Under the pieces are notes generated by a model. The model did not search any database. It was given only the letters and a program-made list of their open reading frames with translations, and was not told the DNA's origin. A stretch of DNA of 64,000 nucleotides from the NCBI RefSeq assembly GCF_036507355.1, contig NZ_AP027877.1, one strand, 5' to 3'. Numbering within the stretch: position 1 is the stretch's first letter; each line of letters opens with the position of its first letter. Shown here piece after piece: positions 2,017 through 58,828 of the stretch. Origin of the DNA: Escherichia coli (GTDB taxonomy: Bacteria; Pseudomonadota; Gammaproteobacteria; Enterobacterales; Enterobacteriaceae). A program made the translations under genes and the position numbers.

Positions 2017-4241
2017 GCTCTTTCCTTATTCAAACAGGGCTTCAATATCGTTAATTAGCTCGCTGGCGGTGATGGCATCGAGTACGGAGAACTGCGCTTC
2101 CTGTGTTGAATTACTCCCCCAGCCATAGCTTTCTGCGTTGCCTTCCCATAGCCACAGCTTGCTTAAGATTTGCTCGGCACTCAGTTCGGCTGGCGACATG
2201 CCTACCGCAAAACCTTCATCGATTTCCATGATTAACGACCAGCGGCCCAGAGGTTTGATCATCCAGCCGATCCAGCCTCCATCCTGCGGGGTGCCCTTTA
2301 TCCAGCCTTTATTCGCCAGCCCCATGACCCGACCGCTCGGGTATTTTCTGCCTGCCCAGCGGGTCAGTTCGCTGGCGTTGCGCTCGGCTTCTGTCAGGGC
2401 GTAACTGTTACGGTCAAGCTGACGGAACGGTGGTAGCAGTTCATAGTCGGCAAAAAGCTGACCAAAGGCGGCAGCATCCGTCGGTGATATTTCCAGAACG
2501 TGAGGAATGCCAACAGAGATATCGCCTTCCGGCAGGGTGAAAAGATCATCGTCAGCGGTGCTGTAGCTGTTATCTTCCGCCACGCGGAAGCACGTCAGTA
2601 GCTGGTTTTCGGTGCTATAAACGCCCCAAATCAGACGGCGGGTTAAGTGGCGTACCAGTGGATGTTCAACCAGGAAGAGCTGAAAGTTTTCTGGCGACCA
2701 GCGGCGACGCAGGCACATGGCGGATTCCAACCTTGCTACCTGCTGGGCGGCGACGGTACGCGCATCTTTTTTCAGCAGTTTGTAGCGGTTAACAGCATCG
2801 TTCGCCTGTGATTCATCATCGCTTTTGTTTGGTTTGGGCAGGTCTTTCAGACGGCTGCCAGAAACATCACGCACAAACGGTTTTAAGGTTTCATCAAAGC
2901 TGACGGTGAACTGGCGTGAGCCGAAATCCAGCAGCAACGAACCGTTATCATCCAGACCGAGATCCGGTGCTAACCGATCTTCAAGCTCTGCCACCGTGAG
3001 TTCGCGGCTCTCGGCAATGTCGGCAATTTTTTCTTTTGCCCGCTCCTGTAATGCTTTGAATTTCAGTTTCTGGGCGATGCCGTTAAGCTGCATCAGGGCG
3101 ATATCACTACCGATAGCAGCGAGAATATCCAACCCAACGGTGGCGCGTTTATGCTGGGATTCACCAGGCCAGGCGCGGATTAATGGCGTCAGTTTGCGGG
3201 CGGTGTCGTCGTTACCGAGAACGCCTAACGCAGCGAACGCCCAACTCTCTTTCGACGGCGCGCCAGCGGTCTGCCAGGCGGTAAACAGATCCCAGGCAAA
3301 TCCCGCCAGTGAGTCGGCGGTACAGGCATCTTTCACCTGCAATAATCCCGGATACAGAGCCTCTTCCTGAGGGAAGCGGAGCATTTCACCGAGGTGGAGG
3401 AGGGCGCTATCTGGCAGTACCTTGCTGCTATTTTTGAGTTTCGGGCGAGTCCATAATGGAGGTTGATAAAACAACGGTAAAGGGGGGATTTTCGCCGGGT
3501 ATTTACCCACAGGACTGTTGTCGTTATTTTTATTTTGAGTTTCCCAGGGCGGCGAGACTAGTACCATTGGTAGAATTTCTGAGTTTGCAAAATCTTCATT
3601 GCGACTATTCAGCAATTGCTGACATTGTTGCAATAAATTTGCCGCTTGCGACGATAATCCGATGACTAATTTTTCGACCAATAAAGAATTTGCATTAAGT
3701 AATGAAACCAGCAATGTATGTTTGCGTTTATCATCTTTTTTTACCAATGCTTCGGCTAATGCCACTATCGTTGCAGAAGGAAAATTTTCGGCACTTTTTA
3801 TTAGTCGTTCATAACAGCGTTTATTAGTATCGGCGGCTTCGATGAGTGCCGTAATGGCCAACGGATGATTAATACATTTCAGTACGTCACCGCAATTATC
3901 TTCTTCAGCATAGGGAGCCAGGCGAGCCAGTGCCGCTATACCTTGCTCCCGTAATACCGTAGCTGACCAACTGGCACCATAGGTGTTAAATACATCAATG
4001 TATTGATAGTTCTCCAGTATTTCGAGCGTGAATGGATCTGTCGCTACCAGTTTCAACATTTCAAGTTGTGGAACATCTACGACCTGGTGTAAACGATGTA
4101 CGATCTCATGGGCCACTTCGGGTATTTCTGGCATTAAAATGGCAATTAACGGTTGGCGATAGAGTGATATATCTGGTAACGCAACGAGTAATTTTGCAAT
4201 GCAATTTTGCCATACTTCTTCTTCTGGGTAATGACTCCAAC

Positions 4242-4745
4242 TTATTGATAGTGTTTTATGTTCAGATAATGCCCGATGACTTTGTCATGCAGCTCCACCG
4301 ATTTTGAGAACGACAGCGACTTCCGTCCCAGCCGTGCCAGGTGCTGCCTCAGATTCAGGTTATGCCGCTCAATTCGCTGCGTATATCGCTTGCTGATTAC
4401 GTGCAGCTTTCCCTTCAGGCGGGATTCATACAGCGGCCAGCCATCCGTCATCCATATCACCACGTCAAAGGGTGACAGCAGGCTCATAAGACGCCCCAGC
4501 GTCGCCATCGTGCGTTCACCGAATACGTGCGCAACAACCGTCTTCCGGAGCCTGTCATACGCGTAAAACAGCCAGCGCTGGCGCGATTTAGCCCCGACAT
4601 AGCCCCACTGTTCGTCCATTTCCGCGCAGACGATGACGTCACTGCCCGGCTGTATGCGCGAGGTTACCGACTGCGGCCTGAGTTTTTTAAGTGACGTAAA
4701 ATCGTGTTGAGGCCAACGCCCATAATGCGGGCTGTTGCCCGGCAT
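4242..4745 (-). CDS. insB: IS1 InsB (made as InsAB' fusion by -1 frameshift)
   Basis: 167-aa ORF overlapping insA in the -1 frame, as expected for IS1. Confidence 0.9.
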
Positions 4746-4939
4746 CCAACGCCATTCATGGCCATATCAATGATTTTCTGGTGCGTACCGGGTTGAGAAG
4801 CGGTGTAAGTGAACTGCAGTTGCCATGTTTTACGGCAGTGAGAGCAGAGATAGCGCTGATGTCCGGCGGTGCTTTTGCCGTTACGCACCACCCCGTCAGT
4901 AGCTGAACAGGAGGGACAGCTGATAGAAACAGAAGCCAC
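4664..4939 (-). CDS. insA: IS1 InsA
   Basis: 91-aa [43 protein letters not shown]..., identical in all four IS1 copies in the window. Confidence 0.9.
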
Positions 4940-5678
4940 TGGAGCACCTCAAAAACACCATCATACACTAAATCAGTAAGTTGGCAGCATCACCAACTCT
5001 GTAATTCCTGGTGTGATATCCGTGACGGCAGGAATGGGAAGTACCGGTAAATCAAATACGGGTATGACATTCTTTTTCTTATTTATTACCCACGGTGGAG
5101 CGACAAGCAGCTCCGGCAACATATCCACAGTGGCATATTCACATTCTTCAGCTACTGGCAGCGGACGACATTCAGATAAGATGCCTGCCGCCTTAGCATT
5201 AACCCAGGGAATGACCTCGCATACTAACTCTGGCGTGGCGGTAATCAGTTTGACAAGCGCTTTACGCCACTCATTATTTTCATGTATTGCCAGCAAAGTA
5301 GCATAAGCGGCAATAGCCGCAGCGGGATGTTTTTGGCAGGCTTTGCTTAAGTATTCCAGGTGCTTTTTCTTGCCATTTACACCGAGGATCAGAATTTGAA
5401 TCGCATCCGGGTGATTCGTTTTCCATAGCCATTTGACAAGATTTTCAGTCTCGCTGATGCGTTCGAAGAGATAAGTGGGATTGTCAGAATGGTCTTCCGT
5501 AAACTAAAGAAGTATCCGGCTTACACCGCGCACCCCAGATACTGCTCTGAGTACAGTGGAAAAATACGATTTCCCACCGTTGTATCGTGATTTTCGTAAT
5601 TTTCGCGCTTATCTGGCAATGTTGTTGGCAAATAATGAGGTGTACTGGCAATAGCGGACACTACCATTTGTTCTTTTT

Positions 5679-6832: not shown

Positions 6833-7939
6833 TATTAGCTCCTTCTGATGCCATTCTATTTCAGGAAGGAGTGTCCGTTAAACTCAGGCTACCTCAATCA
6901 TCGGTTATCACCAGTCTTAACCAGGTCATCGCCGGGACGTTTTGGTCTGCATAGCGTAGAGCTATAGCATGGGCGATATCCGGGCGTTCAGGGAGCAGTA
7001 ACGCCGCAAAAGGTTGCCGTGCGGGGGATAGCGTCGGAATGGCGGTGAGTACTTTATCTACACAGCGTTGCCACTCATCTTCTGAAGCGAGTGAAAGATG
7101 ATGACATAGACGTTGATGCCAACTAGGTAGCGATTCTGCTTTGTGATTAGGTGGAATGATGGTGGTTACTGCGCCTTTTACTGGTTTATATTTGAGTTGA
7201 AGGGCAAAAAGGACGATTTCAACGGCGCTTTCCAGACCACAGCGAATGACTAAGTCATCGACCAGTTCATCTGCAGAGTAAGAGTTCCAAAAACTCCAGA
7301 GCAATGCTGCATCAGATTGCGCACTCCCTGTCTGTTGATTATCCAGAATTCGCCTTTGTAACTCAGCAAAAGCCTGCTGCCAGTTTTCAGGATAAGAGCG
7401 GTAATTGTTGTCGGGATCATATGCCCTGGTGTTATTCGCGATGCGTTGCCATATTTGACCATCTTTGTGCAGATAATTGATCTCTCTGGGGCGAGAACGA
7501 TGAGGAAAAGCAAATCGATTAATATCGCCAGTTATCGGAATGACTGCGTCATCAACCAGCCATGGGCGTTGGATTTTACTCTCAGGGGAAGATTCAACTT
7601 CAGGAGTGGCTTTGGTGATGGGGGGGATATGCACGTTTGCTGAAGCATTTTCTACATAGCCTTTTTTCGTTTTCTCTGCGATCAGCTTAAGCTTCGCTTT
7701 TTCCGCTGCTGCAACATCAGCAAAATTTTTTACCTGGCTTTGCCCTTGGGTACCAACTTTCCCCCAGCTGATATGCAACTCGTTTCCCTGCTGCTCCACC
7801 GCCCAGAATTTATGTGATTTTTCGTCCTGATAGATATAACTCTTCATCCGCGTTCCCTGTATTTATATCCAGTTATAAGCGGATGCTAGCAGTTAATGAA
7901 AAAAATTAAGAGCGTTGAACAAACAAGAAAACAACTTTA

Positions 7940-7976
7940 GGAATTTATAAAGAAAAGGCGCTGTCGATGCAGCGCC
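7940..7976 (-). terminator. Rho-independent terminator downstream of metG
   Basis: Hairpin GGCGCTG-TCGATG-CAGCGCC at 7957..7976, followed on the minus strand by TTTTCTTTAT. Confidence 0.55.
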
Positions 7977-7987
7977 TTGAAGGGGGA

Positions 7988-10021
7988 TTATTTCACCTGA
8001 TGACCCGGTTTAGCACCGGCATCCGGGCTTAGCAGGAAGATATCTTTCCCGCCAGGACCGGCAGCCATCACCATGCCCTCAGAGATACCGAAGCGCATTT
8101 TACGTGGTGCCAGGTTAGCCACCATAATGGTGTGACGACCAATCAGTGCCTGCGGATCCGGGTAGGCAGAACGAATGCCAGAGAAGACATTGCGTTTTTC
8201 ACCGCCGAGATCCAGCGTCAGGCGCAGCAGTTTGTCAGAACCTTCAACAAACTCTGCGTTTTCAATAAGCGCCACGCGCAGGTCAACTTTAGCGAAGTCG
8301 TCAAAGGTGATGGTTTCCTGAATCGGATCATCTGCCAGTGGGCCAGTAACTGGCGCGGCAGCTGCTTTCACTTCTTCTTTAGACGCTTCCACCAGTGCTT
8401 CAACCTGCTTCATATCGATGCGGTTATACAGCGCTTTGAACGGATTCACTTTGTGGCCCAGCAGAGGTTGCTGGATACCATCCCAGGTCAGTTCTGTATT
8501 GAGGAATGCTTCTGCGCGCTCGGTCAGTTTCGGCAGTACCGGCTTCAGGTAAGTCATCAGCACGCGGAACAGGTTGATGCCCATTGAGCAAATCGCCTGC
8601 AGGTCAGCATCGCGGTCTTCCTGTTTTGCCACCACCCACGGAGCCTGTTCATCGACATAGCGGTTAGCCAGATCAGCCAGCGCCATGATTTCGCGCACTG
8701 CTTTACCAAATTCGCGGCTTTCCCACGCTTCACCAATCACTTCAGCGGCATCAGTGAAGGTTTTGTACAACTGCGGGTCAGCCAGTTCGCTTGCCAGCAC
8801 ACCGTCAAAACGCTTGTTGATAAAGCCCGCATTACGAGAGGCCAGGTTAACCACTTTGTTAACGATATCAGCATTCACGCGCTGAACGAAATCTTCCAGG
8901 TTGAGATCGATATCATCAATGCGCGAAGAGAGTTTCGCAGTGTAGTAGTAACGCAGGCTGTCGGCGTCAAAATGATTCAGCCAGGTGCTGGCTTTAATAA
9001 AGGTACCGCGAGACTTAGACATCTTCGCGCCGTTCACCGTCACATAGCCATGAACAAACAGGTTGGTCGGCTTGCGGAAGTTGCTGCCTTCCAGCATTGC
9101 TGGCCAGAACAGACTGTGGAAGTAAACAATATCTTTACCGATGAAGTGGTACAGCTCGGCGGTGGAGTCTTTCTTCCAGTATTCATCGAAGCTTACGCTG
9201 TCGCCGCGCTTGTCGCACAGATTCTTGAAAGAACCCATATAGCCAATCGGCGCATCTAGCCAGACGTAGAAATATTTACCCGGCGCGTTCGGAATTTCAA
9301 AACCGAAGTACGGCGCGTCGCGGGAGATATCCCACTGTTGCAGGCCAGATTCAAACCACTCCTGCATTTTATTTGCCACCTGCTCCTGCAACGCACCGCT
9401 GCGGGTCCATGCCTGCAACATTTCGCTGAAAGAGGGCAGATCAAAGAAGAAGTGTTCAGAATCACGCATTACCGGCGTAGCGCCAGAAACCACCGATTTC
9501 GGCTCGATCAATTCAGTCGGGCTGTAGGTCGCGCCGCAGACTTCGCAGTTATCGCCGTATTGATCCGGGGATTTACATTTCGGGCAGGTGCCTTTTACAA
9601 AACGGTCCGGCAGGAACATGCCTTTTTCCGGATCGTACAGCTGAGAGATGGTGCGGTTTTTAATAAAACCGTTTTCTTTCAGGCGAGAGTAGATAAGTTC
9701 TGACAACTGGCGGTTCTCTTCGCTGTGCGTCGAGTGATAGTTGTCATAGCTGATGTTAAAGCCTGCGAAATCAGTCTGATGCTCCTGACTCATTTCGCCA
9801 ATCATCTGCTCCGGGGTGATACCCAGCTGCTGAGCTTTCAGCATGATCGGTGTACCGTGGGCATCGTCGGCGCAGATGAAGTTGACCTCGTGGCCGCGCA
9901 TTCGCTGGTAACGGACCCAGACATCAGCCTGGATGTGCTCCAGCATATGGCCGAGGTGGATTGAGCCGTTAGCGTACGGCAGTGCGCACGTCACCAGAAT
10001 TTTCTTCGCGACTTGAGTCAT
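7988..10021 (-). CDS. metG: Methionine--tRNA ligase
   Basis: 677-aa product from [31 protein letters not shown] (HIGH motif), KMSKS present, C-terminal tRNA-binding domain. The ORF track's start 3 codons upstream (MPTM) is probably an over-extension. Confidence 0.95.
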
Positions 10022-12097: not shown

Positions 12098-12640
12098 ATG
12101 AAACGTTCAATTATTGCTGTCGCTGTCTTTTCTTCTTTTTTTATGAGCGCTGGAGTATTTGCTGCAGACGTTGATACCGGAACATTAACTATTAAAGGGA
12201 ATATTGCAGAATCTCCGTGTAAATTCGAAGCGGGTGGTGATTCAGTAAGTATTAATATGCCGACTGTACCAACCACTGTCTTTGAAGGTAAAGCTAAATA
12301 TTCTACCTATGATGATGCAGTCGGTGTAACCAGCAGCATGTTAAAAATTAGCTGCCCGAAAGAAGTTGCTGGTGTAAAACTCTCGTTGATTACCAACGAT
12401 AAAATAACTGGCAACGATAAGGCGATAGCCAGTAGCAACAATACCGTGGGTTACTATCTCTATTTAGGTGATAACAGCGAAGTCCTGGATGTTTCTGCAC
12501 CTTTTAATATTGAGAGTTATAAAACAGCGGAAGGTCAATATGCTATTCCGTTTAAAGCAAAATACCTGAAACTGACAGATAACTCAGTGCAATCAGGTGA
12601 TGTGTTATCTTCTCTGGTTATGCGTGTGGCGCAGGATTAA
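12098..12640 (+). CDS. yehD: Fimbrial major subunit (chaperone-usher family)
   Basis: 180 aa with signal peptide MKRSIIAVAVFSSFFMSAGVFA and fimbrial-subunit character; AT-rich upstream region. Confidence 0.85.
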   Translation: MKRSIIAVAVFSSFFMSAGVFAADVDTGTLTIKGNIAESPCKFEAGGDSVSINMPTVPTTVFEGKAKYSTYDDAVGVTSSMLKISCPKEVAGVKLSLITNDKITGNDKAIASSNNTVGYYLYLGDNSEVLDVSAPFNIESYKTAEGQYAIPFKAKYLKLTDNSVQSGDVLSSLVMRVAQD

Positions 12641-12676
12641 TAAATAAAATTGCAAGTTTCTCCAGGTAATAAACAT

Positions 12677-12702
12677 GGCCGCTATCCCCATGGCGGCTTT
12701 TT
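12677..12702 (+). terminator. Weak intra-operon hairpin plus T-run between yehD and yehC (possible attenuator)
   Basis: GCCGC-loop-GCGGC followed by TTTTT, between the major subunit and chaperone genes. Confidence 0.3.
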
Positions 12703-12720
12703 AATTTAAGAGGCATTAAG

Positions 12721-13395
12721 ATGAAAGGATTATTATCTTTACTCATTTTTTCTATGGTCCTTCCTGCACATGCCGGAATTGTTATCTACGGGACGCGCAT
12801 TATTTACCCGGCAGAAAATAAAGAAGTTATGGTGCAGTTGATGAACCAGGGAAACCGTTCTTCGCTGCTGCAGGCGTGGATTGATGATGGCGATACGTCG
12901 TTACCACCAGAAAAAATTCAGGTTCCTTTCATGTTAACGTCACCAGTGGCAAAAATAGGGGCAAACTCCGGGCAGCAAGTAAAAATCAAAATTATGCCGA
13001 ATAAACTGCCCACTAATAAAGAAAGCATTTTTTATCTGAATGTTCTAGATATTCCACCAAATAGTCCAGAACAAGAAGGTAAGAATGCACTGAAGTTTGC
13101 GATGCAAAACAGAATCAAATTGTTTTACCGCCCGGCGGGTATTGCTCCGGTAAATAAAGTGACCTTTAAAAAGTTACTGGTAAATCGCAGTGGCAATGGA
13201 TTGGTGATAAAAAATGACTCAGCTAATTGGGTGACGATTTCGGATGTCAAAGCTAATAATGTTAAAGTCAATTATGAAACTATTATGATTGCCCCCTTAG
13301 AAAGTCAGAGTGTTAATGTCAAAAGTAATAATGCAAATAACTGGTATCTGACCATTATCGATGACCACGGCAACTATATTAGTGACAAAATTTAA
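12721..13395 (+). CDS. yehC: Periplasmic fimbrial chaperone (PapD-like)
   Basis: 224 aa with signal peptide; chaperone-like N-terminal region (GIVIYGTRIIYP). Confidence 0.85.
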   Translation: MKGLLSLLIFSMVLPAHAGIVIYGTRIIYPAENKEVMVQLMNQGNRSSLLQAWIDDGDTSLPPEKIQVPFMLTSPVAKIGANSGQQVKIKIMPNKLPTNKESIFYLNVLDIPPNSPEQEGKNALKFAMQNRIKLFYRPAGIAPVNKVTFKKLLVNRSGNGLVIKNDSANWVTISDVKANNVKVNYETIMIAPLESQSVNVKSNNANNWYLTIIDDHGNYISDKI

Positions 13396-17361: not shown

Positions 17362-17622
17362 ATACTCTCCACTTTGGGGATCAGTAAAATCAGTCGTATA
17401 TCTTTCCCGCCATACAATATAACCGACAAGAGATATTTTGTTAGTGATCCCGTGATTTCGTAAAAAGTGTAAATGAAAGGATGTAGCAAAAGCATCCTCA
17501 TTGAGCGAGAAGTGAGCGGAATAAGCTGATTTAAGAATCATCCTGGGCTAAAAGGATAGCGAAGCCCGGTGATGCTGCCAACTTACTGATTTAGTGTATG
17601 ATGGTGTTTTTGAGGTGCTCCA

Positions 17623-17898
17623 GTGGCTTCTGTTTCTATCAGCTGTCCCTCCTGTTCAGCTACTGACGGGGTGGTGCGTAACGGCAAAAGCACCGCCGGA
17701 CATCAGCGCTATCTCTGCTCTCACTGCCGTAAAACATGGCAACTGCAGTTCACTTACACCGCTTCTCAACCCGGTACGCACCAGAAAATCATTGATATGG
17801 CCATGAATGGCGTTGGATGCCGGGCAACAGCCCGCATTATGGGCGTTGGCCTCAACACGATTTTACGTCACTTAAAAAACTCAGGCCGCAGTCGGTAA
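17623..17898 (+). CDS. insA: IS1 InsA
   Basis: Identical 91-aa InsA. Confidence 0.9.
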
Positions 17899-18320
17899 CC
17901 TCGCGCATACAGCCGGGCAGTGACGTCATCGTCTGCGCGGAAATGGACGAACAGTGGGGCTATGTCGGGGCTAAATCGCGCCAGCGCTGGCTGTTTTACG
18001 CGTATGACAGGCTCCGGAAGACGGTTGTTGCGCACGTATTCGGTGAACGCACGATGGCGACGCTGGGGCGTCTTATGAGCCTGCTGTCACCCTTTGACGT
18101 GGTGATATGGATGACGGATGGCTGGCCGCTGTATGAATCCCGCCTGAAGGGAAAGCTGCACGTAATCAGCAAGCGATATACGCAGCGAATTGAGCGGCAT
18201 AACCTGAATCTGAGGCAGCACCTGGCACGGCTGGGACGGAAGTCGCTGTCGTTCTCAAAATCGGTGGAGCTGCATGACAAAGTCATCGGGCATTATCTGA
18301 ACATAAAACACTATCAATAA
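17817..18320 (+). CDS. insB: IS1 InsB
   Basis: Identical 167-aa InsB. Confidence 0.9.
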
Positions 18321-18355
18321 GTTGGAGTCATTACCGCGAAGCCCAGGTGATTGTT

Positions 18356-52721: not shown

Positions 52722-53612
52722 TCATTTGTTGATTTCAATTTTGTCCCATTCTCTCCCTCGGCTATCCCTATACCGCGCCGCCATTGAATCTGATTTATGT
52801 CCGAGAAGACGTTGAGCAAACTTATCGCCAATCTGATTCCGGTATAGCCTCGCCGACAGGCTACGCAGTTCATGGAATGTTGGTGGGTCTCCATCAAATG
52901 AGAGTCCAGATGCATTTCTCGCCTTTGTAAAATACTTCGATACTGTTTTCGGGGAAAGCGGTTCGTGATGCGTTGAGGCGATTATAGTTTCACTGCCGCT
53001 GGCCTCCCTGCATTTCTGTAGTGTATCAGCCAATGAGATATTGAGCGCGTCAATCGTTAGCATCAGCGGAATGGCGAGCTTAGCCCCTGTTTTACCCTGT
53101 TCAATGTGAAGATGGTTGTCGTTTATGTCTGACCATTTCATTCTGCACAAATCGCCGACTCTCTGCCCTGTAACGACAGCCGAATCCATCGCCAGTCTTA
53201 GCCAGATTGGGAGAGGTTCGGCTGCATGGTAAATCGCGACATACTCATTAGCTGTCAGCCTTGAGCGCCTTACTTCTGACTTTGCTGTGCGGGTTGCTGT
53301 TACCGGATTCGTTTCCACATGCCCCTCGGCTATTGCCTCACGAAAAACGTCAACAAGGGTTGACCTGATTAATTTTGCGGAAGCCGCTTTACCTTCTGCT
53401 ACGTAGGTGTTTAGCATTGCTGCCACCTCTTTCGTTGATATGTCAGCGAGCGGTTTGTCCGGCAATTTTCTTCGGATTGCCCTGATTTTGCTGGCGTAGT
53501 CGAGTAGAGTTTTCGTCCTGATCCCCCTCTCGCTGAGGATTGTTTCATATCGGTCAAGCCACGCATGAAGAGTGATTACGTCAGCGCCTTTAATCCTGTC
53601 TATCAGTGAGGT
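52722..53612 (-). pseudogene. int: Lambda-family tyrosine integrase, C-terminal fragment (truncated by IS600-like insertion)
   Basis: C-terminus ...HELRSLSARLYRNQIGDKFAQRLLGHKSDSMAARYRDSRGREWDKIEINK resembles the lambda Int C-terminus (catalytic R, H-x-x-R, Y). Frame remains open upstream of the first Met up to the IS600 end at 53613. Confidence 0.8.
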
Positions 53613-54122
53613 AGCCTGAGTTTAACGGACACTCCTTCCTGAAATAGAATGGCATCAGAAGGAGCTAATAATGAGCAGAAAAACCCAACGTTACTCTAAA
53701 GAGTTCAAAGCCGAAGCTGTCAGAACGGTTCTTGAAAATCAACTTTCGATCAGTGAAGGCGCTTCCCGATTATCTCTTCCTGAAGGCACTTTAGGACAAT
53801 GGGTTACCGCCGCCAGAAAAGGGCTCGGTACTCCTGGTTCCCGCACGGTGGCTGAACTGGAATCTGAAATTCTGCAACTGCGTAAGGCGTTAAATGAAGC
53901 TCGCCTTGAGCGAGATATATTAAAAAAAGCAACGTATTTTGCACAGGAGTCGCTGAAAAATACGCGTTAATCGAACAATGGCGACAACAATTTCCCATTG
54001 AAGCGATGTGTCAGGTATTTGGTGTATCCAGGAGCGGTTATTACAACTGGGTACAGCATGAACCCTCAGACAGAAAACAAAGTGATGAGCGGCTAAAACT
54101 GGAGATTAAGGTGGCACATACG
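53613..54122 (+). mobile_element. IS600-like element, 5' fragment only
   Basis: Left end TGAGGTAGCCTGAGTTTAACGGACAC at 53613; complete OrfA (53671..53970, identical to the other copy); OrfB matches only for about 38 residues (MCQVFGVSRSGYYNWVQHEPSDRKQSDERLKLEIKVAH) then diverges. Confidence 0.75.
53671..53970 (+). CDS. IS3-family transposase OrfA
   Basis: Identical to the 99-aa OrfA at 6533..6832. Confidence 0.85.
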   Translation: MSRKTQRYSKEFKAEAVRTVLENQLSISEGASRLSLPEGTLGQWVTAARKGLGTPGSRTVAELESEILQLRKALNEARLERDILKKATYFAQESLKNTR

Positions 54123-54149: not shown

Positions 54150-54747
54150 TTACTCACCCTCTTTGATGCGAATGCCAGCGGCGCGTGGCACATTAACTTC
54201 CACGATGCGCACTGTTGGTTTGTACATCTCAATCGCTGTCAGCCAGTCAGCTCCTGTCATGCGCTTTTCCGCATCGCCATTAGTCCACTGAACCGGTACA
54301 CCAATAGCCTTCATCGCGATTTCTATTTCCCCGGCAATGGCGCTTTTTCCGCAACCAGTAAAACCAGAAACAACGACAAGAACTTCACCTTTGGCTGGTT
54401 TTATTTCCCGTGCTTCCAGTTCTGCAATGCGCTTACTTCCATCCGCGATTACTCCCTCGTAATATTCACGCTGCTCGTTGAGTTTTGATTTTGCTGCTTC
54501 AAGCTCAACTCTCAGCTTCCCTACCGTTAGCGCAATATCCTCGTTCTCCTGGTCACGGGATTTGATGTATTGCTGGTTTCTTTCCCGTTCATCCAGAAGC
54601 GCCAGCACGGTTGCCGGATTAGCCTTGGCAACAAAATCACGGACTGGCTTACAATCAATCTCAGCAATGGGTTGATACGATGTGTATCCATGCTGTCTTG
54701 TATAACTACCGTGACGAATAACGAAAAAATCACCATTTATTTTTTTA
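54150..54747 (-). pseudogene. Phage early-region protein fragment (Ead/Ea22-like, tentative), N-terminus removed by IS1
   Basis: Reading frame enters from inside IS1 (the ORF-track start codon lies within the IS1 end); C-terminal part ...LVVVSGFTGCGKSAIAGEIEIAMKAIGVPVQW. The family assignment is by resemblance only. Confidence 0.4.
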
Positions 54748-54771
54748 GCCTGCCACGGTAATGACTCCAAC

Positions 54772-55275
54772 TTATTGATAGTGTTTTATGTTCAGATAAT
54801 GCCCGATGACTTTGTCATGCAGCTCCACCGATTTTGAGAACGACAGCGACTTCCGTCCCAGCCGTGCCAGGTGCTGCCTCAGATTCAGGTTATGCCGCTC
54901 AATTCGCTGCGTATATCGCTTGCTGATTACGTGCAGCTTTCCCTTCAGGCGGGATTCATACAGCGGCCAGCCATCCGTCATCCATATCACCACGTCAAAG
55001 GGTGACAGCAGGCTCATAAGACGCCCCAGCGTCGCCATCGTGCGTTCACCGAATACGTGCGCAACAACCGTCTTCCGGAGCCTGTCATACGCGTAAAACA
55101 GCCAGCGCTGGCGCGATTTAGCCCCGACATAGCCCCACTGTTCGTCCATTTCCGCGCAGACGATGACGTCACTGCCCGGCTGTATGCGCGAGGTTACCGA
55201 CTGCGGCCTGAGTTTTTTAAGTGACGTAAAATCGTGTTGAGGCCAACGCCCATAATGCGGGCTGTTGCCCGGCAT
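54772..55275 (-). CDS. insB: IS1 InsB
   Basis: Identical 167-aa InsB. Confidence 0.9.
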
Positions 55276-55469
55276 CCAACGCCATTCATGGCCATATCAA
55301 TGATTTTCTGGTGCGTACCGGGTTGAGAAGCGGTGTAAGTGAACTGCAGTTGCCATGTTTTACGGCAGTGAGAGCAGAGATAGCGCTGATGTCCGGCGGT
55401 GCTTTTGCCGTTACGCACCACCCCGTCAGTAGCTGAACAGGAGGGACAGCTGATAGAAACAGAAGCCAC
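55194..55469 (-). CDS. insA: IS1 InsA
   Basis: Identical 91-aa InsA. Confidence 0.9.
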
Positions 55470-55548
55470 TGGAGCACCTCAAAAACACCATCATACACTA
55501 AATCAGTAAGTTGGCAGCATCACCGCCTGCCACGGTAATGACTCCAAC

Positions 55549-56052
55549 TTATTGATAGTGTTTTATGTTCAGATAATGCCCGATGACTTTGTCATGCAGC
55601 TCCACCGATTTTGAGAACGACAGCGACTTCCGTCCCAGCCGTGCCAGGTGCTGCCTCAGATTCAGGTTATGCCGCTCAATTCGCTGCGTATATCGCTTGC
55701 TGATTACGTGCAGCTTTCCCTTCAGGCGGGATTCATACAGCGGCCAGCCATCCGTCATCCATATCACCACGTCAAAGGGTGACAGCAGGCTCATAAGACG
55801 CCCCAGCGTCGCCATCGTGCGTTCACCGAATACGTGCGCAACAACCGTCTTCCGGAGCCTGTCATACGCGTAAAACAGCCAGCGCTGGCGCGATTTAGCC
55901 CCGACATAGCCCCACTGTTCGTCCATTTCCGCGCAGACGATGACGTCACTGCCCGGCTGTATGCGCGAGGTTACCGACTGCGGCCTGAGTTTTTTAAGTG
56001 ACGTAAAATCGTGTTGAGGCCAACGCCCATAATGCGGGCTGTTGCCCGGCAT
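55549..56052 (-). CDS. insB: IS1 InsB
   Basis: Identical 167-aa InsB. Confidence 0.9.
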
Positions 56053-56246
56053 CCAACGCCATTCATGGCCATATCAATGATTTTCTGGTGCGTACCGGGT
56101 TGAGAAGCGGTGTAAGTGAACTGCAGTTGCCATGTTTTACGGCAGTGAGAGCAGAGATAGCGCTGATGTCCGGCGGTGCTTTTGCCGTTACGCACCACCC
56201 CGTCAGTAGCTGAACAGGAGGGACAGCTGATAGAAACAGAAGCCAC
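55971..56246 (-). CDS. insA: IS1 InsA
   Basis: Identical 91-aa InsA. Confidence 0.9.
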
Positions 56247-56296
56247 TGGAGCACCTCAAAAACACCATCATACACTAAATCAGTAAGTTGGCAGCA

Positions 56297-57112
56297 TCAC
56301 CCTTCCTTGATTCTTTTTTCTTCTGCTATTCTGGCTTGCTCTTTTGCTTCAGCCTCGCGCCGGATTCGTTCAGCCTCCTCCTGTGCTTTTCTGCGTTCTG
56401 CTTCAATTGCTGCCTGCTTTTCTCTTTCAGCTCGTTCTGCTGCCTCTTTTGCTTCGCGCTGTGCTCTCTGCTCGGCTTCAATGCGTTCACGCTCTGCACG
56501 TTCCGCTGCGGCCTTAGCTTCTGCTTCTCGCCTTGCTGCTGCTTCAATTTCGGCTTTTGCCTTTGCTTCGGCTTCAGCTCTGGCTTTCTCTTCAGCTTCT
56601 CTTTTTAAGCGTTCTTCATGCTCTCGCTTTTCCTGCTCCGCTTTGAGTCTTGCCTCTTCTCTTTGGCGGTCAAATTCGCGATCCATCAAAATCGCTATTT
56701 CATGGTCAGACTCAATTTGCTTTGCGAGAGCTTCAGCTGCTGCCTTAGCTTCTTCTTCGGCTTTAATCCGCGCCTGTTCTTCCTCATAATCAGTAAGAGG
56801 CTGGCGCGCCTTGGCTTTCAGTTCATCAAGGCGATCGCGCACTGTCTTGCGGTTGGCATCAATTAGCTTTGGAATTTCCTTCAGTTCAGCAACAAGGTCT
56901 TTGCCAAGACCATCGAGATATGTTTTCGTCTGCGCAACTTTATACGCCAGAGAAGCGATCTCCTTTCTGCCCTTTGCCGTTGTGATATCAGGCACAAAGG
57001 ACATAACTTCACGTTCAACCTTTTGAAGGATTTCTTCAATCTGGTCGGCAGACTGAAATACAGTCATTGCATTTGCTTTTTCAATAACAACTAAATCTGT
57101 TACTTCACTCAT
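56297..57112 (-). pseudogene. Phage protein with E/A/K/R-rich coiled-coil, C-terminally truncated by IS1
   Basis: Probable start MSEVTDLVVIEKANAMTVFQ at 57112, preceded by GGAGG. Long EAKAAAEALAK / REAEAK low-complexity helix; the stop codon TGA is supplied by the IS1 terminus (GGTGATG). Confidence 0.5.
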
Positions 57113-57674: not shown

Positions 57675-57959
57675 GTGCCCATGAGCGGTAAGCGTTATCC
57701 CGAAGAGTTTAAAATTGAAGCAGTCAAACAGGTTGTTGATCGCGGTTATTCTGTTGCCAGCGTTGCAACACGTCTCGATATCACCACCCACAGCCTTTAC
57801 GCCTGGATAAAGAAGTACGGTCCGGATTCTTCCGCTAATAAAGAACAGTCAGATGCTCAGGCCGAGATCCGCCGTCTCCAGAAAGAGCTGAAGCGGGTTA
57901 CCGACGAACGGGACATATTAAAAAAAGCCGCGGCGTACTTCGCAAAGCTGTCCGACTGA
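57675..57959 (+). CDS. IS3-family transposase OrfA
   Basis: 94-aa ORF MPMSGKRYPEEFKIEAVKQVVDRGYSVASVATRLDITTHSLYAWIKKYG... Confidence 0.85.
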   Translation: MPMSGKRYPEEFKIEAVKQVVDRGYSVASVATRLDITTHSLYAWIKKYGPDSSANKEQSDAQAEIRRLQKELKRVTDERDILKKAAAYFAKLSD

Positions 57960-58015
57960 GGTACGCCTTTATCCGTGACAACACCTGTTGCTGGCCTGTT
58001 CGCCTGCTCTGTCGG

Positions 58016-58828
58016 GTGCTGGATGTTCATCCCAGTGGTTTTTACGCCTGGCTTCAGCAGCCGCATTCACAACGCCATCAGGCAGACCTGAGGCTGACAG
58101 GGCAGATTAAACAGTTCTGGCTGGAATCGGGATGCGTCTATGGTTATCGCAAAATCCATCTGGATCTGCGGGACAGCGGGCAACAGTGCGGAGTGAACAG
58201 AGTCTGGCGACTGATGAAACGTGTCGGGATAAAGGCTCAGGTCGGATACCGGAGCCCGCGGGCACGTAAAGGCGAGGCCAGTATCGTGTCGCCCAACAGG
58301 CTCCAGCGACAGTTCAATCCGGATGCTCCGGATAAGCGTTGGGTAACGGACATAACCTACATCAGGACCCACGAAGGCTGGCTGTATCTTGCCGTGGTTG
58401 TTGATCTGTTCTCACGCAAAATTATCGGCTGGTCCATGCAATCCCGGATGACAAAGGACATTGTCCTGAACGCACTGCTGATGGCTGTATGGCGCCGTAA
58501 TCCCCAAAAACAGGTGCTGGTTCATTCGGATCAGGGCAGTCAGTACACAAGCCATGAGTGGCAGTCGTTCCTGAAATCACACGGCCTGGATGGCAGCATG
58601 AGCCGTCGCGGTAACTGCCATGATAATGCGGTTGCAGAAAGCTTTTTCCAGTTGTTGAAACGCGAACGGATAAAGAAAAAGATCTACGGAACGCGGGAAG
58701 AAGCCCGCAGCGATATTTTTGATTACATCGAAATGTTTTATAACAGTAAGCGTCGGCATGGTTCCAGCGATCAGATGTCACCGACAGAATATGAAAACCA
58801 GTATTATCAACGGCTCGGAAGTGTCTAG
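58016..58828 (+). CDS. IS3-family transposase OrfB (DDE)
   Basis: 270-aa ORF with DDE motifs (WVTDITY...HSDQGSQYTS...NAVAESFF). Confidence 0.85.
   Translation: MLDVHPSGFYAWLQQPHSQRHQADLRLTGQIKQFWLESGCVYGYRKIHLDLRDSGQQCGVNRVWRLMKRVGIKAQVGYRSPRARKGEASIVSPNRLQRQFNPDAPDKRWVTDITYIRTHEGWLYLAVVVDLFSRKIIGWSMQSRMTKDIVLNALLMAVWRRNPQKQVLVHSDQGSQYTSHEWQSFLKSHGLDGSMSRRGNCHDNAVAESFFQLLKRERIKKKIYGTREEARSDIFDYIEMFYNSKRRHGSSDQMSPTEYENQYYQRLGSV

Follow-up and report, generated by a model that had tools for sequence, protein, structure and literature searches.

How do two complete copies of one insertion sequence (IS) come to lie head to tail with nine base pairs between them, in the middle of a decayed prophage? 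The question is raised by a stretch of 64,000 nucleotides from an Escherichia coli genome (assembly GCF_036507355.1, contig NZ_AP027877.1), called the window below, in which two copies of IS1 in the same orientation, here named a and b, interrupt what was once the early region of a lambdoid phage. The initial annotation, made from the letters of the window, described a 9-bp target duplication flanking the first copy and separating it from the second, proposed either a dimer of IS1 or an insertion immediately beside a copy already in place, and noted that two phage open reading frames (ORFs) are truncated. On the observations presented here, which concern the anatomy of the pair, the deletion on which it sits and a set of natural IS1 pairs whose spacers copy their flanks, we lean, with modest confidence, towards reading the pair as a true IS1 dimer, head to tail, formed by the IS1 transposase rather than by two ordinary insertions.

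Both copies are complete, with 768 bp each, and do not differ from one another at any position (0/768 differences). On the plus strand, each has its right inverted repeat (IRR) on the left and its left inverted repeat (IRL) on the right. Copy a occupies positions 54757-55524 (minus strand; IRR at 54757, IRL at 55524) and copy b positions 55534-56301 (minus strand). Their termini are inverted repeats of about 23 bp, GGTGATGCTGCCAACTTACTGAT and GGTAATGACTCCAACTTATTGAT, present in both copies. The genes insA and insB' are carried by the minus strand, at 55194-55469 and 54772-55275 in copy a, and at 55971-56246 and 55549-56052 in copy b. The two genes and the A6C motif are intact in both copies; the motif for -1 frameshifting reads TTAAAAAACTC in the window and lies at about 55209-55228 in copy a. 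Copy b matches the Pfam families Zn_ribbon_InsA, HTH_Tnp_IS1 and DDE_Tnp_IS1 (PF03811, PF12759, PF03400), with E values from 1e-21 to 2e-78. The window copies are 98.8-100% identical to E. coli copies annotated as IS1A, and those of E. coli A30 (L030 in our collection of examples) are 100% identical to the window copy.

The 9-bp spacer GCCTGCCAC (55525-55533) leads from the IRL of copy a to the IRR of copy b and forms with them an IRL-IRR junction of the circle type. The same nine base pairs are found at 54748-54756, where they abut the IRR of copy a and provide the final bases of an ead/Ea22-like gene fragment; the spacer repeats this flank base for base. Copy a is thus bordered by GCCTGCCAC on both sides, while copy b has GCCTGCCAC on its left and CTTCCTTGA on its right (56302-56310), the latter belonging to a coiled-coil phage gene and bearing no relation to the spacer. 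The resulting repeat unit of 777 bp does not extend by even one base at either edge, and on the plus strand GCCTGCCAC occurs within the window at these two sites alone. A chance origin of the repeat was rejected; a random 9/9 match at a given position has a probability of about 4e-6. The coordinates and the identity of the two copies therefore bear out the arrangement first described. With two complete copies in direct orientation and abutted IRL and IRR, the pair has the layout of an IS dimer.

The two flanks belong to genes that are not neighbours in intact phages. On the left, the ead/Ea22-like fragment (54150-54756, minus strand; Pfam PF13935) lost its N-terminus to copy a and kept its stop codon. 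On the right, a coiled-coil ('TolA-like') phage early gene (56302-57112, minus strand) keeps 270 of 322 codons, its 3' end having been removed by copy b; intact relatives have 322 amino acids, and the loss amounts to the last 52 codons, or about 158 bp. Truncation of two phage ORFs, as initially reported, is thus confirmed. The coiled-coil gene has counterparts with 98-99.6% identity to the window in intact lambdoid and P22-like prophages, where the sequence across the right junction reads ...gctcttcttCTTCCTTGAttc. Because the uninterrupted gene reads this way, the spacer derives from the ead side. In these prophages the coiled-coil gene is separated from ead by cIII, kil, Rad52 or Erf, ssb, an anti-RecBCD gene, a DUF2737 gene and other small genes, over a distance of 3.6 kb (L001), 2.65 kb (L012) or 3.9 kb (L008). 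Since the two truncated genes are set apart in these relatives, the IS1 pair occupies a deletion junction. Judged by comparison with them, some 2.7-3.9 kb is gone at the pair from a lambdoid prophage remnant that bears gtrABC. This adds to the initial annotation: the pair stands on a prophage deletion junction and does not correspond to two simple insertions into adjacent genes. Two ordinary independent insertions were rejected, copy b having no duplication of its own.

The same arrangement was absent from 5,426 complete E. coli genomes, in which the best coverage was 61%. For the approximately 130 bp of ead beside IS1, neither E. coli genomes nor phages yielded a close match. The ead/Ea22-like gene is an unusual mosaic; the C-terminal half of its ORF (54150-54500, minus strand) contains a Walker-A-like GFTGCGKS motif and matches nothing in Pfam or NCBIfam.

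Is such a pair peculiar to this genome? Closely abutted IS1 junctions were searched for with a query made of the last 30 nt of IS1 followed by its first 30 nt (sensitive blastn, E <= 1e-8), a threshold that single IS1 ends fail to reach. End-to-start junctions of this kind were found in 200 records, representing 195 of the 5,426 complete E. coli genomes. Matches were sampled at even intervals down the ranking, and spacer lengths were read from the 51 of them that cover the full query. In 43 of the 51 the spacer measures 6-9 bp, with a sharp peak at 8 bp (32 matches); 7 bp and 6 bp were found four times each and 9 bp three times. The remaining matches have spacers of 1 bp (four), 3 bp (one) and 11 bp (two), or a 7-bp overlap of the two ends (one). 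In metagenome and viral contigs, five junctions were found, with spacers of 6, 8, 9, 8 and 29 bp, the last of which corresponds to two independent insertions with a duplication each. Searches for the end of IS1, 0 to 30 unspecified nucleotides and the start of IS1 in species-representative genomes gave no match, nor did the right-junction pattern in viral contigs.

The partners of many pairs are not identical and show from 3 to 74 differences. This is also the case of four of the five contig junctions (74/768 and 12/393 differences, or differences within the terminal 55-58 nt). Since the partners differ, duplication and misassembly are excluded for these non-identical pairs.

Several structures met in the survey deserve mention for themselves. 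The sole 1-bp match that was fetched (L031, 901-1051) shows a complete IS1, then 1-2 bp, then the first ~120 bp of another IS1, and the same 61-bp span recurs in 13 other records, from chromosomes and plasmids; a dimer that has decayed, or else a small mobile unit in its own right, could give such a structure. In four mixed pairs (L023, L025, L037 and L042, positions 163-930) the left partner is a divergent IS1, 94.4% identical to the window copy and with GGTAGT instead of GGTAAT at the tip of its IRR. These pairs have four distinct 8-bp spacers, and their other partner is of the IS1A/B type, more divergent in L042. Finally, a 14-kb viral contig (L017) harbours three nearly identical copies of a divergent IS1 (within 7901-9465 and at 12135-12902). 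Two of them are independent insertions 12 bp apart, with a duplication each, which hints at a local clustering of insertions near a resident IS1.

The origin of the spacers can be read from the pairs themselves. From 26 fetched E. coli examples, together with the window and one metagenome pair, 23 full-length pairs were tabulated. In 12 of these 23 pairs the spacer reproduces a flank exactly, against no match in 2,000 permutations of the spacers among pairs. In seven pairs, the spacer copies n bases lying directly against the IRR of the left partner, n being 9 in the window, 8 in L021, L022, L040 and L036, 7 in L046 and 6 in L045. In two others (L029 and L038), the spacer is a suffix of the duplication of the right partner, and in three (L024, L030 and L016) a prefix of the duplication of the left partner. 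Pair L028 looks most like an ordinary insertion with a 9-bp duplication that overlaps the end of the resident IS1 by 2 bp. In L023 and L041, a single 9-bp duplication borders the whole pair, and the spacer is unrelated.

Three of the IRR-abutting cases are particularly informative. L036, L045 and L046 have kept a 9-bp duplication on both outer flanks, with spacers of 8, 6 and 7 bp, respectively; the L045 pair splits pdeC and the L046 pair splits yeiL. Because the spacer is here shorter than the outer duplication, neither insertion nor crossover between duplications is sufficient to account for these pairs. If one IS1 end is joined to a second copy at a point some bases beyond that copy's opposite end, exactly this shorter-spacer geometry results.

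Pairs L040 and L041 shed light on what may happen to such a structure afterwards. Both contain, at positions 163-1706, the same 1,544-bp unit, IS1B-GTCCGGGG-IS1B. L040 is from the chromosome of strain U1 (Japan), where the spacer copies the local flank. L041 is from plasmid pCE2050_B (gull, Australia), where a new duplication of 9 bp, CAATTCTCC, borders the unit. The identity of the two units therefore indicates that pairs either travel whole or are formed anew at other sites from a circle.

From these data a reaction, a sequence of events and a possible present activity can be inferred for the window dimer. One IS1 would have stood at the left-hand (ead) break of the deletion of about 3-4 kb in the early-left operon, or the deletion would have been made later by IS1. 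An adjacent deletion starting from IS1 would have extended to the coiled-coil gene, either before or after dimerisation. Adjacent deletions are classical behaviour of IS1. In the dimerisation step, the IRL of one copy would have been joined 9 bp outside the IRR of its sister copy. Equivalently, a circle of IS1 with 9 bp of flanking DNA could have re-entered the resident copy by homologous recombination. By either route, the 9-bp repeat would be flank captured next to the IRR and not necessarily the footprint of an insertion, and what surrounds copy a may thus be such a captured flank. The claim of a 9-bp target duplication is modified in this respect: the repeat is there, and its origin by insertion is not required, given that comparable pairs have spacers of 6-9 bp copied from a flank.

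The putative IRL-9 bp-IRR junction would share the geometry of IS1 circle junctions, which reportedly carry 6-9 bp. For this reason, the junction of the pair is predicted to be a reactive substrate for transposition, and the 1,545-bp unit might be able to move on its outer ends; the whole pairs L041 and L023, each bordered by a 9-bp duplication, are an indirect hint of such reactivity. Two direct repeats of 768 bp recombine to a single copy at appreciable frequency, and the pair is therefore probably young. More generally, natural IS1 dimers could be common frozen products of the circle reaction, seen in about 3% of the genomes with spacers of 6-9 bp and usually with an IRR-abutting copy, the window pair being a recent and still reactive member; we advance this wider proposal tentatively, with somewhat less confidence than the dimer itself.

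Several points weigh against this interpretation. The most direct is that the 9-bp spacer has the full length of an IS1 duplication, which makes the window indistinguishable from a fresh insertion abutting a resident copy. It is also a minority length in E. coli, where it represents about 6% of the sample. The 22 pairs to which the window was compared were picked across spacer classes, not at random, and shared ancestry was left uncorrected; even so, of the 15 8-bp spacers sampled, 14 are distinct. The four IS1 copies of the window are identical, so that their sequence is silent on parentage. Look-ups of exact proteins (coiled-coil protein, ead fragment, MdtA and Gtr transferase) retrieved only drafts broken at the IS copies; two of the drafts, GCA_905398585.1 and GCA_016660925.1, have the MdtA and/or Gtr proteins of the window. 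A consensus scan, which is a weak test, detected no promoter built from the abutted ends, only the promoter-like sites native to the IRL (CTGCCA-16-TATGAT at 55490-55517, minus strand, in copy a, and an identical one at 56267-56294 in copy b); to our knowledge, a junction promoter is not a requirement for IS1. Nor do we know of an experimental demonstration of dimer formation by IS1. Lastly, IS1 is absent from the list of dimer-forming elements in a published account of such structures (PMC9333248).

Among the other explanations, a targeted simple insertion fares best. Copy b would have been resident at the deletion junction, following an adjacent deletion of its own, and copy a would have inserted into the 9 bp next to the IRR of b, with GCCTGCCAC as an ordinary target duplication. 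The length of the spacer, equal to a full IS1 duplication, and its register with the left flank agree with this scenario, as do the reading of L028 as an ordinary insertion overlapping a resident end and the independent insertions of L017, merely 12 bp from each other. Insertion beside their own inverted repeats is moreover documented for IS30 and IS911. It must, however, be considered that one exact position is required, that the pairs with a 6-8 bp spacer and a surviving outer 9-bp duplication (L036, L045, L046) are left unexplained, and that so are the offset prefix cases (L024, L030, L016). As targeted insertion fails for these related pairs, a second mechanism would be needed for one class of structures. 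Of the two possibilities first put forward for the pair, the dimer is the better fit, and the abutting insertion we regard as unlikely, albeit deserving to be kept in mind.

A second possibility is the joining of two copies that were initially apart. Two insertions with like orientation would have come first, that of IS1 a into ead with GCCTGCCAC as its duplication and that of IS1 b into the coiled-coil gene with CTTCCTTGA as its own; joining of b, by its IRR, 9 bp outside the IRL of a would then have removed the 2.7-3.9 kb interval. This has the merit of producing the deletion and the tandem in a single event. It is in keeping with the non-identical pairs whose spacers are prefixes or suffixes of a partner's duplication (L024, L016, L038), and IS30 dimers arising from distantly placed copies have been reported (PMC9333248). 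On the other hand, IS1 must already have inserted twice, with like orientation, inside some 4 kb, and the commoner pattern of the survey is the IRR-abutting copy, which fits dimerisation at a single locus. Nor did a relative with the two copies apart at these sites come to light, the relatives within reach being drafts broken at IS copies. We therefore hold this origin to be improbable, and more so than the targeted insertion.

Homology-driven duplication would start from a single IS1, with crossover or slippage between its 9-bp duplications doubling the 777-bp unit and a later deletion removing sequence from the third GCCTGCCAC up to CTTCCTTGA. The identity of the copies and the exact, full-length 9-bp repeat are as expected from such an event. 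But exchange between repeats of 9 bp is very inefficient, an additional deletion event is required, and the same-site dimers of E. coli have spacers of 6-8 bp that are impossible to obtain by this route, all of which makes it a most improbable explanation. An assembly artefact, in which a single real IS1 had its 777-bp unit duplicated or its copy number misjudged, is suggested by the perfect tandem of identical copies, repeats being the usual site of assembly errors, yet it is just as improbable, as reads from a single-copy locus with CTTCCTTGA as its right flank do not contain the junction of an IS1 end, GCCTGCCAC and an IS1 start, which the assembler would have had to invent, and about 3% of complete E. 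coli genomes show the same architecture, in many cases with partners that differ.

The surroundings of the pair bear other marks of IS activity. Rightward from mdtA, which is outside the prophage, the window contains a heavily decayed prophage with pieces of IS, ending in gtr genes. An integrase fragment (52722-53465) is followed by an IS3-family orfA and a truncated orfB, read as IS911-like (53671-54120), about 30 bp past the stop codon of ead. Beyond the coiled-coil gene, a complete IS3-family element, read as IS600-like (57675-58828), joins the early region of the prophage to its tail-fibre/gtr end, where a tail-fibre-like fragment (59169-59534) adjoins the gtr cluster (59580-62342, minus strand). 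The latter encodes GtrA (120 aa), GtrB (309 aa) and a type-specific glucosyltransferase of 495 aa (59580-61067); relatives of this last protein have the Pfam domain Glucos_trans_II, and its identity to P22-type GtrC in the phage collection is only about 25%. The gtr cluster and the integrase fragment mark a remnant of about 10 kb of an O-antigen-modifying prophage between ibs/yegL and mdtA. Since IS elements stand at the boundaries of what is left, most of the prophage was lost at IS boundaries. The combination of IS1 with IS600-like and IS911-like sequences would suit a Shigella or an IS-rich E. coli.

Two more IS1 copies are present in the window, at 4227-4994 and 17568-18335, and both are 100% identical to those of the pair. 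A clean duplication of 9 bp, GCGAAGCCC, surrounds the copy at 17568. The copy at 4227 has none, with CTTCTTCTG on its left and AACTCTGTA on its right, which suggests another IS1-associated rearrangement.

For the genome considered, the event at the IS1 pair carried further the decay, through IS elements, of a serotype-converting prophage, which lost kil, cIII and its recombination genes and kept gtrABC. The pattern revealed by the survey is the more interesting lead, the window pair itself being a modest curiosity rather than a new system. For IS1, the evidence has long left the choice between replicative cointegration and transposition through circles ambiguous. Assemblies usually collapse IS1 pairs that lie head to tail, or such pairs are passed over, yet the spacers preserve a record of the attacking end and of its point of attack. 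Counting such pairs systematically could thus probe natural IS1 movement from sequence alone and flag loci prone to further deletion. If the proposed origin is right, the prevalence of IRR-abutting spacer copies would imply that the IRL is the preferred attacking end. The natural pairs would then provide evidence, at the scale of genomes, for end joining of the copy-out type by IS1, and the 'target duplication' of one partner would be captured flank.

IS1, its circles, its adjacent deletions and IS dimers in general are already known. The accessible papers establish that IS1 forms circles, count it among the copy-out-paste-in elements and describe a transposition that depends on spacer length. 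In this literature, hyperactive junctions or dimers are attributed to IS30, IS21, IS3-family elements and IS256, and IS1 is named solely as a circle former. The remark in the initial annotation that this configuration has been described as unusually active in transposition and deletion formation found no confirmation there for IS1. The terms 'IS1 dimer' and 'tandem IS1' occur in no open-access paper, much of the older literature being unsearchable, and no description of the abutted-junction pattern of our survey was found in the searchable literature. IS1 dimers in natural genomes thus seem to have been hardly described.

How does the window pair compare with these known systems? As in classical adjacent deletions, the deletion begins exactly at an IS1 end and here took away the cIII-kil-recombination module; the classical reaction, however, leaves one IS1 and the window has two. 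The pair also resembles the IS1 composite transposons of the Tn9 type, in that two IS1 copies in direct repeat can move on their outer ends (compare L041 and L023), with the difference that the 'cargo' of the natural pairs is the 6-9 bp spacer alone. IS1 circles reportedly likewise have IRL and IRR abutted over a few base pairs of captured flank (Turlan & Chandler 1995, EMBO J 14:5410; Sekine et al. 1997, Gene 191:183; Shiga et al. 1999, Genes Cells 4:551), whereas the junction of the pair belongs to the chromosome, with a complete copy on each side, instead of to a free circle. The pair also resembles the tandem dimers documented for IS30, IS21, IS3-family elements and IS256, that is (IS30)2, (IS21)2, the dimers of IS911, IS2, IS3 and IS150, and those of IS256 (PMC9333248). 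These consist of two complete head-to-tail copies with the inverted repeats spaced as in circles. The dimers of copy-out-paste-in elements arise from sister copies or from two distant copies and are linked to deletions (PMC9333248). The window pair departs from them in having no detected junction promoter and in its spacer, 9 bp long (6-9 bp for IS1 pairs) where IS30 and IS911 have 2-3 bp.

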